This document shows positions 59,027-62,243 of a DNA stretch of 64,000 nucleotides, one piece after another (the stretch's first letter is position 1; each line of letters starts with the position of its first letter). The notes below the pieces were generated by a model. That model saw only the letters and a program-made list of their open reading frames with translations, had not been told where the DNA came from and did not search any database. Source of the DNA: an uncultured Chloroflexia bacterium (GTDB taxonomy: Bacteria; Chloroflexota; Limnocylindria; Limnocylindrales; CSP1-4); NCBI GenBank assembly GCA_963819655.1, contig CAWFXA010000002.1, positions 1,120,001-1,184,000 on the forward strand, in the 5' to 3' direction. Position numbers and translations under genes: made by a program.

Positions 59027-59842
59027 ATGCACCCGATCCTGGTCGAGCTCGGTCCCTGGCGCATCCTGACCCATGACGCCTTCACCGTGCTCGCCCTGGC
59101 CGTCGGCCTGGCGCTTTACTACCGCGACCTCCGTCGCCGGGGCTGGCTCGACCCGACGATCGTCGCGATCTCCGTCGCCGCGATCGCGGGCGCGTTGATC
59201 GGCGCGCGGCTGATCACGGCGTGGGAGCACCTCGAGTACTACGCGGCGATGGACGGCATGCCCCTGACGGCCGCCATCGAGCACAGCGGCAAGAGCCTCA
59301 TCGGAGCGCTCGCCGGCGGGTACGTGGCGACCGCCCTGGCCAAGCGGGCGGCCGGCTACACACGCTCGACCGGGGACGCCTACCTGCTGGCGATCCCCGT
59401 GGCGACTGCCATCGGTCGACTCGGATGCTTCCTGTCCGAGTTGCCGCTCGGCACCCCGACTGACCTCCCGTGGGGGATGACCGTGTCGGCCGAGGCGGCC
59501 GCGGCCTTCGCCCGCTGCCCGGGCTGCGACCTGCCGATGCACCCATCGATGCTGTATGAGATCGGCTTCAACGTCATGGCGGCACTGGTCATCGTGCAGT
59601 ACCGCGATCGCGTCACCGTCCCGGGCGACGGGCTTCGGTTGTATCTGCTCGCCGCCGCGATCTTCCGGTTCCTCGTCGAGTTCGTCCGCGGGAACGAACC
59701 CCAGGCGCTCGGGTTGACCGGACCGCAGTGGGTCCTGATCCCGCTCATCGGGCTGCTCATCGTCCATTTCGTGCGCCAATGGCGGCGCGGCGCCTATGCC
59801 GTCCCGCCGGCGCCCGTCCCCATCCCGCTCGGAGGGACCTAG
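59027..59842 (+). CDS. Prolipoprotein diacylglyceryl transferase (Lgt)-family paralog
   Basis: MHPIL, IGARL, IGRLGCFL, GTPTDLPWG, HPSMLYE, RFLVEFVRG. Confidence 0.88.
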   Translation: MHPILVELGPWRILTHDAFTVLALAVGLALYYRDLRRRGWLDPTIVAISVAAIAGALIGARLITAWEHLEYYAAMDGMPLTAAIEHSGKSLIGALAGGYVATALAKRAAGYTRSTGDAYLLAIPVATAIGRLGCFLSELPLGTPTDLPWGMTVSAEAAAAFARCPGCDLPMHPSMLYEIGFNVMAALVIVQYRDRVTVPGDGLRLYLLAAAIFRFLVEFVRGNEPQALGLTGPQWVLIPLIGLLIVHFVRQWRRGAYAVPPAPVPIPLGGT

Positions 59843-59845
59843 ACC

Positions 59846-60340
59846 GTGACCGAGGAACGAGGCCCGACCGTCCCAGCCGTCGACGAGGACCGGATCGGGG
59901 TCCTGGCCGCCTACGTCCAGACGAACCGCGATCGATTCACCGACGAGGCCCTGCGCGAGGCGGCGCGGACCGCCGGCTACACCGACGCCGAGATCGCGGC
60001 CGCGTGGTCCGCGGCTGCCGACCCGAGCAAGTCCATCCCGACCGAGCGTCGAACGAATATCGGTGCGGTCATCGCGATCGCAGTCGGTTTTGCGATCGCC
60101 GTCTACGGCGCGGCCGCGCTCCTCGGCTCGTTGGGGGTGGGCGACATCGCCGCGATCGTCGGGATCGGCCTCGTGCTCGCGGGGATGGTCGGCTGGGTCC
60201 TGCTGCGCGACTCGCGGCCGTCGCTGGCGGCCGGGCTCGGTTGGGGCGTTCTCCTGGCCGTCGGCCTGCCGATCATCATCGTCCTTGGCATCCTCGGGAT
60301 CTGCCTTGTCGGCGCCAGCATCCCGATCGCACCCCAGTGA
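59846..60340 (+). CDS. Small membrane protein (three TM, Cys at the end of the last helix)
   Basis: GGAGG RBS; soluble N-terminal helical part (LREAARTAGYTDAEIAAA), then TM segments ending LGILGICLVG. Confidence 0.8.
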   Translation: MTEERGPTVPAVDEDRIGVLAAYVQTNRDRFTDEALREAARTAGYTDAEIAAAWSAAADPSKSIPTERRTNIGAVIAIAVGFAIAVYGAAALLGSLGVGDIAAIVGIGLVLAGMVGWVLLRDSRPSLAAGLGWGVLLAVGLPIIIVLGILGICLVGASIPIAPQ

Positions 60341-60351
60341 CGGAGGTCGCC

Positions 60352-61920
60352 ATGCTCGCTCTGCGCCCGTATCTCCCGCTGCGCATGGTGCTGACGGTCT
60401 GCGGCCACTGCTTCAGCGAGGACCCCGATCGCGACATCGACTATGAGACCGACATCCTGCAGGGCAACCTCGTCGCCATGGACGGTGCGGTCTACCTGCG
60501 ACGGACGTGCCGGCGTGGCCATGGCGAGGTCATGAGCCTGTACGAGGAGGATCACGGACGGTGGGAATACCTCCAGCAATGGCGCACCCCGACGCGCGAG
60601 ATCATCCCGGACACCATCGGCAACGCCGCGCCGATCCCGATGGGCTATGCCGACGGGCTGGGCGATCTCCAGACCCAGCACTCGTGCGTGCTCCTGCTGG
60701 ACATCACCGAGAACTGCAATCTCGAATGCCCGACGTGTTTCGCCGCCGCCGCTCCCGGCATCGGCCGTTTCGCCCGGCTGCCGCACATCCTCCGATCGCT
60801 CGATGCCTCGGTACTGCGCGAAGGCGGCCGGATCGACGTGCTGATGCTGTCGGGCGGGGAGCCGACGGTCCATCCCGAGGTGCTCGAGATCATCGAAGCC
60901 GCGACCGAGCGGAATGTCACGCGCGTGATCCTCAATACGAACGGCATCCGGATCGCGAAGGACGACCGGTTCGTGGCCGCGCTGGGACGGCTCCGCGGCC
61001 GGGTCGAGGTCTATCTCCAGTTCGACGGCTTCGAGCTGGAATCACACCTGTACCACCGGGGCGAAGACCTTCGTGACATCAAGGCGGAGGCGCTCCGGCG
61101 TCTTGCCGCGGAACGGGTCTTCACGACGCTGGCCGTCGCCGTCGCGGAGGGCGTCAACGACCGCGAGGTCGGCGCGATCGCCGACTTCGCCCTTGGCACC
61201 GACTACATCGCCGGGGTCGCCTTTCAGCCGGTCTTCGGGTCGGGCCGGATGAGTCCGATCGACCCGATGCGTCGAGTCACGACAACGGGGACCCTCAACA
61301 GGCTCGGCGAGCAGACGGCCGATCGCGTCGGGCCGGACGATTTCATCGCCTTGCCGTGCTCCCACCCCGATTGTTCGTCGATCACCTATTTCATCCAGGG
61401 CGATAGCGGCGAGTGGCGCTCCGTGCCGCGCATGCTCGGGGAAGATCGCTTGAAGGAGTATCTCGGGCTGGTGTCGAACCGGATCGCCCCGGACGACGCG
61501 ATGTGGGCGGCGCTCGTCGGGATGATGTCCGAGACCACGCTCGTGTCCCGACCCGAGCTGGTGGACCACCTCCTCCGGGTCTGCGAGGCGTGCGATCTCG
61601 GCGTGACGGGCTTCGTGAAGTCGCTCGGTCGGTGGCTGTTCGATCGAGAGGCGGCCGTCCAGGAGATCGCTCTACGGGTCAAACGCTTCTCGGTCAAGTC
61701 GTTCATGGATGCCTGGACGCTCAATGTCGAGCGGTTGCAGCAATGCTGCGTCCACGTCGGGTCGACCGACGGCGAGGCCAACCCCGTCCGCGTCCCGTTC
61801 TGCGCCCGCCAGTTGTTCGGCGGGCTGCGCCGGACGACGTCCGCCGGCATGGTGCCGGCGCGCGAGCTGGTGTCGCTCGATGACGTCCGTGCCCGCCGAT
61901 CCGCGGCGGTTCGACCATGA
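60352..61920 (+). CDS. Tetraether synthase (Tes/GDGT-MAS, MJ0619)-like radical SAM protein
   Basis: N-terminal CGHC...CRRGHG; CNLECPTCFA; SGGEPTVHP; LNTNGIRIA; VYLQFDG; FQP; CSHPDC; FMD...QCCVH...PFC; GGAGG RBS. Confidence 0.85.
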   Translation: MLALRPYLPLRMVLTVCGHCFSEDPDRDIDYETDILQGNLVAMDGAVYLRRTCRRGHGEVMSLYEEDHGRWEYLQQWRTPTREIIPDTIGNAAPIPMGYADGLGDLQTQHSCVLLLDITENCNLECPTCFAAAAPGIGRFARLPHILRSLDASVLREGGRIDVLMLSGGEPTVHPEVLEIIEAATERNVTRVILNTNGIRIAKDDRFVAALGRLRGRVEVYLQFDGFELESHLYHRGEDLRDIKAEALRRLAAERVFTTLAVAVAEGVNDREVGAIADFALGTDYIAGVAFQPVFGSGRMSPIDPMRRVTTTGTLNRLGEQTADRVGPDDFIALPCSHPDCSSITYFIQGDSGEWRSVPRMLGEDRLKEYLGLVSNRIAPDDAMWAALVGMMSETTLVSRPELVDHLLRVCEACDLGVTGFVKSLGRWLFDREAAVQEIALRVKRFSVKSFMDAWTLNVERLQQCCVHVGSTDGEANPVRVPFCARQLFGGLRRTTSAGMVPARELVSLDDVRARRSAAVRP

Positions 61921-62243
61921 GCGCGGCACCCGCAGGGACGGTCGGGCCTGCCACGTACGTCCGACCGCCACTGTCCCAGCCGGAGAAATACGAGCGCATG
62001 GCGTTCACGTTCTGCCGGATGGGGACGGTCGGCTTGATCGCCTGGGTCGTGACGCCGGCCGTCTTCGTCCTGGTCGTGGCGGTCGTCGCGATCGCTTTCT
62101 ACGCGAAGTCGATCACGCTGGGCGTGTCGTGGAGCAAGTGTTTCCTGCGTCGGCCGACCCTGATCATCGGAGTCTGGGCCGCGATCGCGATCGCCGACCT
62201 GGTCTGGCTGTTCGTCCTGGGACAACGCTGGCCGGTGGGGTGA
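61917..62243 (+). CDS. Small membrane protein with two Cys
   Basis: ATGA overlap with the radical SAM stop; TFCRMG...TM...WSKCFLRR...TM. Confidence 0.8.
   Translation: MSAAPAGTVGPATYVRPPLSQPEKYERMAFTFCRMGTVGLIAWVVTPAVFVLVVAVVAIAFYAKSITLGVSWSKCFLRRPTLIIGVWAAIAIADLVWLFVLGQRWPVG

Follow-up and report, generated by a model that had tools for sequence, protein, structure and literature searches.

We examined a 64,000-nucleotide stretch of DNA from an uncultured Chloroflexia bacterium (GenBank assembly GCA_963819655.1, contig CAWFXA010000002.1, positions 1,120,001 to 1,184,000; hereafter the window) and found near its end four packed genes for a paralog of the prolipoprotein diacylglyceryl transferase Lgt (the Lgt-like protein), a membrane protein of 164 amino acids (aa), a radical SAM enzyme resembling the tetraether-lipid enzyme Tes (GDGT-MAS; MJ0619), and a 108-aa membrane protein. 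Comparison across genomes showed an obligate pairing of the Lgt-like protein with a Tes/GDGT-MAS-like radical SAM enzyme, accompanied by small Cys-bearing membrane proteins. We regard the module as a lipid radical SAM system of the Tes type in which an Lgt-like protein is the obligate partner and small Cys proteins take part; it is widespread, and we found no paper that describes it.

The partner genes were counted with hidden Markov models (HMMs) built from orthologues at 79 related loci from named genome contigs, for which the radical SAM identity was 58-99%. The Lgt-like gene lay upstream on the same strand in 70 of them, and eight of the nine misses were contig ends; L072 alone carried 2.6 kb of upstream sequence without an Lgt-like gene. 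The 108-aa protein was encoded downstream at 74 loci (three of the five misses were truncated), at least one copy of the 164-aa family was found at 72, and the Lgt-like, radical SAM, and 108-aa genes stood together at 66. An earlier reading of the window, made from its sequence alone (the original prediction), had taken the four genes for one system and proposed a survey of their co-occurrence; all four were found together at 65 of the 79 loci, and the four-gene arrangement is far beyond chance.

Among 401 genomes sampled from the window's phylum, 53 had a Tes-like match (E<=1e-20) and only nine, including the window's own, had one at an identity of at least 48%. Six of the eight other loci at this level had an Lgt-like gene within their 1.5-kb flanks, and in the remaining two the flank was filled by copies of the 164-aa family, one of them having an Lgt-like gene 2.2 kb upstream. 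Ordinary Tes-like loci (33-38% identity), by comparison, had an Lgt-like neighbour within 1.5 kb in only 2 of 21 cases. We sampled 301 further genomes from a second phylum, that of genome G401, which holds L072 and bears the record title Actinomycetes bacterium; some of the taxon names used here rest on doubtful record titles. Radical SAM matches at E<=1e-40 were present in 72 of these genomes, and at the 30 best loci, all of which are without the N-cluster motif described below, the Lgt-like gene was adjacent on the same strand in 24, with three of the six misses truncated. It lay downstream of the radical SAM gene in 23 of those 24, which is the reverse of the order in the window. Ten regions of 12-13 kb were also compared, and nine of them had a homologue of the 108-aa gene 0.1-3 kb beyond the radical SAM and Lgt-like genes, which stood in that order.

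The two enzymes also occur within a single chain. LGT, zinc-ribbon, and Radical_SAM domains were joined in 3 of the 150 best representatives, and among the 120 matches listed for one of these there were at least 55 fused clusters of 656-825 aa with these three domains, some of them titled Tepidisphaeraceae or Tepidisphaerales (Planctomycetota) or Verrucomicrobiota, and carrying the NCBI label 'prolipoprotein diacylglyceryl transferase family protein'. The fused proteins mostly keep the N cluster (two CX3CX2C motifs in 54 of 56; GRxGC in 45 of 56). Metagenome loci carried separate, often overlapping Lgt-like and radical SAM genes in 61 of 80 cases, in a sample that was ranked against a fused query and is therefore biased toward the pair. 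Adjacency conserved in two gene orders, together with the fused clusters, bears out the functional coupling of Lgt paralog and radical SAM enzyme that had been proposed from the window alone. In the fused family (alignment A4, numbering of P0191) a (nearly) invariant C194 lies in the Lgt part and a C246, C247 pair in the linker past the last helix, and these Cys are distinct from those of the CPGC motif in the Limnocylindria proteins.

Close homologues carry the names Candidatus Limnocylindrales or Limnocylindria (Chloroflexota). A protein-cluster search returned 'hypothetical protein' clusters only, with Chloroflexota and Actinomycetota as the commonest taxa, and we regard these as leads only. 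Five loci with 71-83% identical radical SAM proteins (L038, L054, L055, L057, and L070) lie in metagenome-assembled genomes (MAGs) titled Methylomirabilota, Rubrobacter, Candidatus Angelobacter, Patescibacteria, and Thermomicrobiales, and when genomes around the 'Angelobacter' one (G404) were sampled, the matches fell at almost the same contig numbers and coordinates as those of the Chloroflexota sample; we take this second sample to be the window's own phylum again, with nothing added on Acidobacteriota. The oddly titled MAGs suggest mis-binned contigs or mislabelled MAGs rather than transfer. Unpublished genomes contributed single rows to the phylum sample (G227), to the Lgt survey and tree (G038), and to the 'Angelobacter' sample (G931).

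In a quick, unrooted tree of 96 bacterial radical SAM homologues, the window protein fell in a clade (clade A, SH-aLRT 100) with the Limnocylindria-type loci (11 rows), L094, P0127, and P0130, and clade B (43 rows, support 100) was made up of the fused proteins and metagenome-linked radical SAMs. Chloroflexota homologues that have no Lgt neighbour were mostly outside both clades, and the linked or unlinked label (45 and 22 rows, respectively) switched six times on the tree. The tree contains neither archaeal Tes nor Mss, the bacterial membrane-spanning lipid synthase known from Thermotoga, and because no archaeal Tes was placed, the position of the window enzyme outside the Tes clade rests on HMM cut-offs and on the clade structure of the bacterial homologues only.

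The radical SAM protein matched Pfam Radical_SAM at 56.6 bits, with a sub-threshold HMPTM zinc ribbon. Its score against the NCBIfam equivalog for Tes (NF045702) was 179.1 bits, or 155.4 in a six-frame genome search, against a cut-off of 450, and its best-scoring NCBIfam model, the TrsS radical SAM (seleno)protein (NF045646, also an equivalog), gave 221.1 bits, far under the cut-off of 490; none of the 20 nearest full-length representatives reached either cut-off. TrsS is an uncharacterised protein with an entry in a table of PMC13188914. Selenocysteine in the homologues was considered and rejected, as three '1 TGA' flags (G058, G009, and G024) lie past the end of the open frame (L091, L092, and L094) and were read as the gene's own stop. 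The only PDB match extending beyond the radical SAM core was GDGT-MAS (7tol, E 2.2e-35). Structure prediction, which had been suggested along with the original prediction, gave an AlphaFold2 (AF2) model from an 81-row alignment (A2; pLDDT 91.1, pTM 0.91) that has the whole GDGT-MAS/Tes fold, with the four-domain architecture of PDB 7TOL. Foldseek aligned it over its whole length to 7tom and 7tol (E 4e-37 and 1e-35, TM score 0.75-0.79, about 536 columns, and about 22% identity in the structural alignment), with SkfB next at 0.35. Every motif named in the original prediction was found in the translation (C17-x2-C20 ... C53 ... H57, NTNG, YLQFDG, FQP, HPDC, FMD, CCVH, and PFC), and NTNG, YLQFDG, FQP, FMD, CCxH, and PFC are shared with Tes/GDGT-MAS.

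Section 2.1 of the 2026 review PMC13459092 lists four metal sites for Tes. Three Cys and one His bind a rubredoxin-like Fe, another three Cys and one His bind [4Fe-4S]N, the third site is the radical SAM cluster, and the fourth is [4Fe-4S]C (3 Cys + Met), a sulfide of which captures the first substrate radical; the same section gives a phosphoglycerol-headed lipid as the substrate of GDGT-MAS. Across the 81 rows of A2 the rubredoxin-like site is kept, with C17, C20, and C53 invariant and H57 present in at least 90%, and so is the radical SAM motif CX3CX2C, with C122, C126, and C129 invariant. The C-terminal set of C336, C341, M452, C465, C466, and C484 is conserved in at least 90% and aligns with SSHQHC, FMD, CCIH, and PFC of 7tol, and all but C336 are candidate ligands of the C-terminal cluster. 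What is missing, and had been overlooked in the original prediction, is the N-terminal [4Fe-4S] motif CxxxCxxC...H. The stretch aligned to CPYDCGLCPNH of 7tol, which we infer from its position before the radical SAM motif to be the N-cluster motif of GDGT-MAS, reads IPMGYADGLGDLQTQH, with no Cys and only the His (H110) kept. Every clade A row, including all 30 loci of the second phylum, has a single CX3CX2C, and the 108-aa two-Cys partner accompanies this loss of the N cluster in clade A. Because the window's clade has lost this cluster, electron delivery must differ from that of archaeal Tes. By its motifs and its model the enzyme is thus Tes-like in predicted fold and catalytic cluster, yet outside the Tes equivalog and minus one defining metal site. 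Membership of the Tes equivalog is not sustained, given a score of 179 against 450 bits, a separate clade, and the loss of one of the four metal sites.

The Lgt-like protein scored 112.8 bits against Pfam LGT (PF01790; gathering score 24.9) and only 55.5 bits against the NCBIfam lgt equivalog (TIGR00544; cut-off 118.9), for which the canonical copy of the same genome scored 170.5. Its AF2 model (pLDDT 85.4) had a single Foldseek match at E<=0.001, to E. coli Lgt (5azb, TM score 0.62-0.65), with which it shares the LGT domain, the seven-helix fold, and the conserved arginines. Aligned with the annotated K-12 record, it keeps R143, G154, H196-P-S-x-L-Y-E, R239, E243, and R246, and it differs in Y26 (His), H103 (Ile), N146 (Cys), and Y235 (Ala); the canonical Lgt of the same genome retains Y26 and N146. 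The Cys at the N146 position, C134, was found in all 66 orthologue rows, and both Cys of an extra CPGC before HPS (C164 and C167) in 64 of the 66. Among 25 proteins comprising second-phylum homologues and the window protein, R143 was kept in 25, N146 was replaced by Cys in 25, and E151 by Cys in 24.

The genome has three LGT-domain genes: the canonical copy on another contig (220.7 bits), the Lgt-like gene of the module (112.6 bits), and a third (68.5 bits). This third gene is very divergent and lies on another contig, away from the radical SAM gene (G000:C1:243642-244364, minus strand, locus L004), and further low-scoring Lgt paralogs occur in phylum-sample genomes without any Tes-like match. 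In a quick IQ-TREE maximum likelihood tree of 77 rows with midpoint root, one branch (SH-aLRT 97) separated 31 canonical proteins (30 from Chloroflexota genomes and that of E. coli) from all 46 that are linked to a radical SAM gene; divergent paralogs not adjoining a radical SAM gene, including the third copy of this genome, were left out. The tree and the residue pattern show the predicted protein as part of a separate, N146C, radical SAM-linked branch of the Lgt family.

Related substitutions appear in the literature. The sections of PMC13251419 concerned describe binding of phosphatidylglycerol by Lgt and name Y26, H103, R143, N146, G154, and R239 as residues that E. coli Lgt absolutely requires. 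They report N146C in the Lgt of L. interrogans, which partially complements E. coli, and Y26H with N146C in MSMEG_5408 of M. smegmatis, with a 'presumed low Lgt activity', and note that distant Lgt proteins have C or C/D instead of N146 and E151. In these sections and in the corresponding parts of a preprint (10.1101/2025.01.07.631728), N146C variants are treated as weak or redundant Lgt, with no mention of a radical SAM neighbour. N146C was found in 25 of the 25 proteins of our second-phylum comparison. A literature search on the locus tags adjoining MSMEG_5408 gave nothing of relevance.

None of the small proteins matched a family in Pfam or NCBIfam. The 164-aa protein has a soluble N-terminus of about 70 residues and three hydrophobic segments, the third of which ends in the sequence L-G-I-C153, 11 residues from the C-terminus; all 50 aligned rows share P142, G151, and C153, and the remainder diverges to 26-40% identity. 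It does not have the make-up of a prolipoprotein, as it is without an N-terminal signal peptide and its motif is only lipobox-like, the lipobox consensus being given in a passage of PMC12462473 as [LVI][ASTVI][GAS]C. Copies of the family numbered none at 7 of the 79 loci, one at 54, two at 13, three at 3, and four at 2. The tandem arrays of two to four copies (18 of 79 loci) stand, for example, upstream of the radical SAM gene in L037, L052, L077, L091, and L092, and even closely related genomes differ in copy number, a pattern often met with in genes for substrates or precursors. In the 108-aa protein all 74 rows have C33 (AFTFC[RK]) and C75, the latter within a basic loop (...SKC), a pair that is invariant in the 46 rows of alignment A1 down to 24% identity and that second-phylum homologues keep as ExxAFxFC[KR] and GKxxT[KR]C. 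The contexts F-T-F-C33 and S-K-C75 offer no lipobox-like site. The 108-aa protein is a core partner in clade A. Co-folding of the radical SAM enzyme with it gave a score of 0.00, which counts neither for nor against a complex.

In clade B, one to four small lipobox-like open reading frames (ORFs) were found directly 3' of the radical SAM gene at 34 of 74 loci, compared with 5 of 322 control windows. The scan covered loci with at least 300 nt downstream, and the controls were windows of equal size from the same loci under the same relaxed filter; a stricter initial motif filter had given 15 of 73 loci and was relaxed afterwards. These ORFs (n=48, median 68 aa, up to four in tandem) end in G(-4) x [GSA](-2) [AITV](-1) C [GAS](+1), with a median of 7 residues past the Cys, and the motif of the 164-aa protein, G(-2) [IVLT](-1) C, is of the same type. 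In 34 of 36, the loop ahead of the last hydrophobic segment carries at least two K/R residues; the tail past the Cys has a median of none. K/R-rich loops lie on the cytoplasmic side of the membrane (the positive-inside rule), and because the loop carries K/R and the tail does not, the clade B Cys can be placed at the outer end of the helix. The predicted layout resembles a lipoprotein signal peptide (n-region, h-region, and lipobox Cys) with almost no mature part. No lipobox-like ORF was found beside 19 Tes-like genes without an Lgt-like gene, in flanks of only 1.5 kb. The motif filter excludes Pro and so caught the 164-aa family at just 4 of 74 loci; that family was judged by alignment. The expectation that the co-encoded small membrane proteins carry Cys is borne out by the invariant positions in the row alignments. 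The layout of an Lgt acceptor is seen in the 164-aa protein and the clade B small proteins, which have a lipobox-like Cys after a K/R-rich loop and a transmembrane helix, and not in the 108-aa protein.

To our knowledge, the sole known chemistry of the Lgt family is the transfer of diacylglyceryl from phosphatidylglycerol to a Cys behind a hydrophobic helix. We read the Lgt-like protein as a lipidating enzyme because this is the family's only known chemistry, the arginines are kept, and acceptor-like proteins are encoded beside it. At a probability of roughly 40%, and from sequence comparison, we propose that the Lgt-like protein S-diacylglycerylates a dedicated small membrane protein and that the radical SAM enzyme couples the lipid tails. 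The Lgt-like protein, which keeps the two phosphatidylglycerol-phosphate arginines and has an altered acceptor pocket (Y26H, an aliphatic residue for H103, and N146C), would move diacylglyceryl to the invariant Cys of the small membrane protein. In the window the acceptor would most likely be the 164-aa protein, through C153, which is placed like a lipobox Cys at the outer end of the last helix. The radical SAM enzyme would act from the cytoplasmic face, with the two-Cys protein of 108 aa probably serving as its membrane anchor, and would join two unactivated carbons of the acyl tails in the fashion of Tes, by means of the radical SAM cluster and the conserved C-terminal cluster. The join could lie within the protein-bound diacylglyceryl, giving a macrocycle, or extend to a second lipid, giving a membrane-spanning, protein-tethered product. 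A broader version, about which we are somewhat more doubtful, is that a large part of the bacterial proteins called Tes homologues would not act on free phospholipids but belong to such a three-component machine. In it the Lgt-like protein would load a tiny dedicated membrane protein at its C-terminal Cys, and the acyl tails would then be welded by the radical SAM enzyme, either together or to a lipid in the opposite leaflet, giving a protein-tethered macrocyclic or membrane-spanning lipid.

Several observations weigh against this protein-lipidation scheme, each functional step of which is drawn from sequence and model. Topology is one of them: the prediction places the acceptor Cys at the outer leaflet, yet a radical SAM enzyme must act in the cytoplasm. 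Y26, H103, and N146, absolutely required in E. coli Lgt, are all replaced in the Lgt-like protein, and L-G-I-C is not a canonical lipobox and implies no signal peptidase II step. The small proteins are also unevenly distributed: 40 of the 74 clade B loci gave no motif ORF, the second phylum conserves only one small protein, of the 108-aa type without a lipobox-like site, and L073 and L076, the two most divergent Limnocylindria-type loci, are truly without the 108-aa protein. The module is patchy as a whole, with a match in 4 of 23 genomes of the same family and in one of three further genomes of the same genus, and because of this patchiness we regard it as accessory rather than as a core membrane pathway.

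The main rival is a pathway confined to lipids, in which the radical SAM enzyme would be a bacterial membrane-spanning-lipid or dicarboxylic-acid synthase working on ordinary phospholipids, as has been proposed for bacterial Tes homologues; this we consider somewhat less likely than the protein-lipidation scheme. The Lgt-like protein would then be a membrane-embedded lipid-handling subunit, binding or presenting phosphatidylglycerol or moving diacylglyceryl or a head group to a non-protein acceptor, and the small proteins would be scaffolds or assembly factors. Such a pathway would accord with the whole-length match of the radical SAM enzyme to the GDGT-MAS fold and with the fusions, in which the radical SAM domain follows the last Lgt helix; the C-terminus of Lgt is cytoplasmic. 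The acyl-activating and PlsC-type acyltransferase neighbours and the one radical SAM-AMP-binding fusion described below point the same way, as do the change of three residues needed for protein lipidation in E. coli and the many linked loci without a lipobox-like ORF. It leaves unaccounted for, however, the invariant Cys of three different small proteins, the lipobox-like C-terminal Cys, the tandem copies, and the enrichment of 34/74 over 5/322, and we know of no lipid-to-lipid transfer in the Lgt family. On its side is also the kind of lipid handled by the two enzyme families, since GDGT-MAS takes a phosphoglycerol-headed lipid and Lgt binds phosphatidylglycerol (PMC13459092 and PMC13251419, in the sections cited above).

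The small size, fast divergence, one to four tandem copies, and single invariant site of the small proteins would also suit precursors of a lipopeptide similar to the ribosomally synthesized and post-translationally modified peptides (RiPPs), in which the peptide itself would be the target of the radical SAM enzyme (a thioether or C-C bond at or near the Cys, for instance) and would be lipidated by the Lgt-like protein, giving a modified lipopeptide and no cross-linked lipid. Radical SAM peptide maturases are indeed among the weak NCBIfam matches, but they match the radical SAM core alone (TM score about 0.35), whereas the window enzyme has the complete four-domain Tes architecture, with no SPASM or RRE-type domain in the Pfam, NCBIfam, or Foldseek results, and the Cys is predicted across the membrane from the enzyme; we consider this explanation improbable. 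We give very little credence indeed to the view that the Lgt paralog is a redundant prolipoprotein diacylglyceryl transferase whose place beside a radical SAM gene is meaningless. The suggestion in the relevant part of the M. smegmatis preprint (10.1101/2025.01.07.631728) that the two Lgt homologues of that species are redundant speaks for such a view, but the adjacency survives a change of gene order, the fused clusters come close to refuting it, the radical SAM-linked proteins stand on their own side of a supported branch, and a canonical Lgt is already present in the genome.

A literature search, supplements lying outside it, found no paper that links Lgt-family proteins to Tes-like radical SAM enzymes, in agreement with the earlier remark that no pathway of this form had been described; two supplementary figures (Fig. 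4 of PMC8941075 and Fig. S8 of PMC13251419) may be relevant to what is said here about distribution. The window enzyme differs from Tes/GDGT-MAS in being bacterial, in its separate clade, and in its pairing with an Lgt-like gene and small Cys proteins. [quoted passage not shown] Like these homologues and Mss, which are bacterial radical SAM enzymes expected to join fatty-acyl tails (brGDGT, diabolic acid), the window enzyme is bacterial and Tes-like, but Mss is a different radical SAM family, and the passages on bacterial Tes homologues mention no Lgt-like partner, small Cys proteins, or loss of the N cluster.

The features of the locus are collected in Table 1. The original description of four packed, co-directional genes at 59027-62243 was confirmed on re-reading the sequence: the gaps are 3 bp (59843-59845) and 11 bp (60341-60351), and the radical SAM and 108-aa genes overlap at 61917-61920 in an ATGA stop/start (gaccATGAgcg), by which the 108-aa gene is, judging from the sequence, translationally coupled to the radical SAM gene. 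The radical SAM reading frame is open from 59728, and because orthologues start aligning at residue 1 of the 60352 start, 60352-61920 is the likely gene. The DNA is GC-rich, at 0.67-0.71 across the module region, without a compositional break, and a promoter and terminator scan gave nothing useful within the operon. Downstream lie a 154-aa ORF on the minus strand and then a 397-aa ORF that is open at the end of the window. Metatranscriptome contigs from two libraries (150-300 nt, mostly 95-99% alike) cover parts of all four genes, and because DNA can occur in such libraries we did not count them as evidence of transcription. No sequencing run contained half of the words sampled from the module.

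Table 1. Genes of the module and its divergent neighbour in the window
Feature	Position	Strand	Basis
Lgt-like membrane protein, 271 aa	59027..59842	+	ORF list; Pfam LGT; signature GRLGC (C134), CPGC (C164, C167)
164-aa membrane protein, candidate acceptor	59846..60340	+	ORF list; without Pfam/NCBIfam family
Tes/GDGT-MAS-like radical SAM enzyme, 522 aa	60352..61920	+	Pfam Radical_SAM; orthologue alignment
108-aa membrane protein, two invariant Cys	61917..62243	+	ORF list; ATGA-coupled to radical SAM gene
AMP-binding acyl-activating enzyme, 543 aa, divergent	57262..58893	-	Pfam AMP-binding 230.3 bits

The acyl-activating enzyme divergent from the module is a possible accessory of it. Homologues covering at least half of the query were found at 32 of the 79 loci, divergent beside the Lgt-like gene at 27, and this synteny in close relatives may merely reflect relatedness. 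At five loci (L051, L038, L039, L060, and L062) an AMP-binding match lies upstream on the same strand. The gene in L051 (773-3310, plus strand), upstream of the Lgt-like gene, joins AMP-binding, PP-binding, and PlsC-type acyltransferase domains, and the other four have the AMP-binding match only; its three domains hint at an enzyme of fatty-acid activation and re-acylation, that is, at lipid remodelling tied to the module. A search for fused forms of more than 915 aa gave a single match, P0275 (927 aa), in which a Tes-like radical SAM protein carries a C-terminal AMP-binding domain and which, by its domain content, represents a second type of fusion tying the radical SAM family to acyl activation. 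Clustering of the neighbouring genes by greedy ORF calls, which are noisy in high-GC DNA, brought out only the AMP-binding gene, a 7TM-HD receptor, and YqeY; as conserved neighbours of the module these were rejected and judged synteny of close relatives. The 7TM receptor with an HD hydrolase (7TMR-HDED, 7TM-7TMR_HD, HD; L013:8634-11369, plus strand, and about 24 loci) stands about 1.3 kb past the end of the radical SAM gene as a frequent downstream neighbour in one sub-branch, and it is not in the window.

The brGDGTs are widely used as climate proxies, and the bacterial Tes homologues are the main candidates for their makers, although according to passages of PMC8941075 and PMC11868695 the activity of these homologues has never been confirmed. 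In whole Tes-like clades the enzyme is genetically tied, in some cases by fusion, to an Lgt-like protein, and to small Cys membrane proteins, and a radical SAM gene of this kind expressed alone might fail; the module names the partner genes. If MSMEG_5408 belongs to the radical SAM-linked branch, simple redundancy would be an unlikely role for it, and the module would give a context to the Y26H/N146C 'second Lgt' of mycobacteria. Even a pathway confined to lipids would be a new and widespread variant of membrane-spanning-lipid synthesis with an unexpected subunit. If the proposed lipidation of a small protein is true, the module would be categorically new: lipoprotein chemistry of a kind not seen before, a class of protein lipidation of its own, and possibly a carrier-based route to bacterial membrane-spanning lipids.

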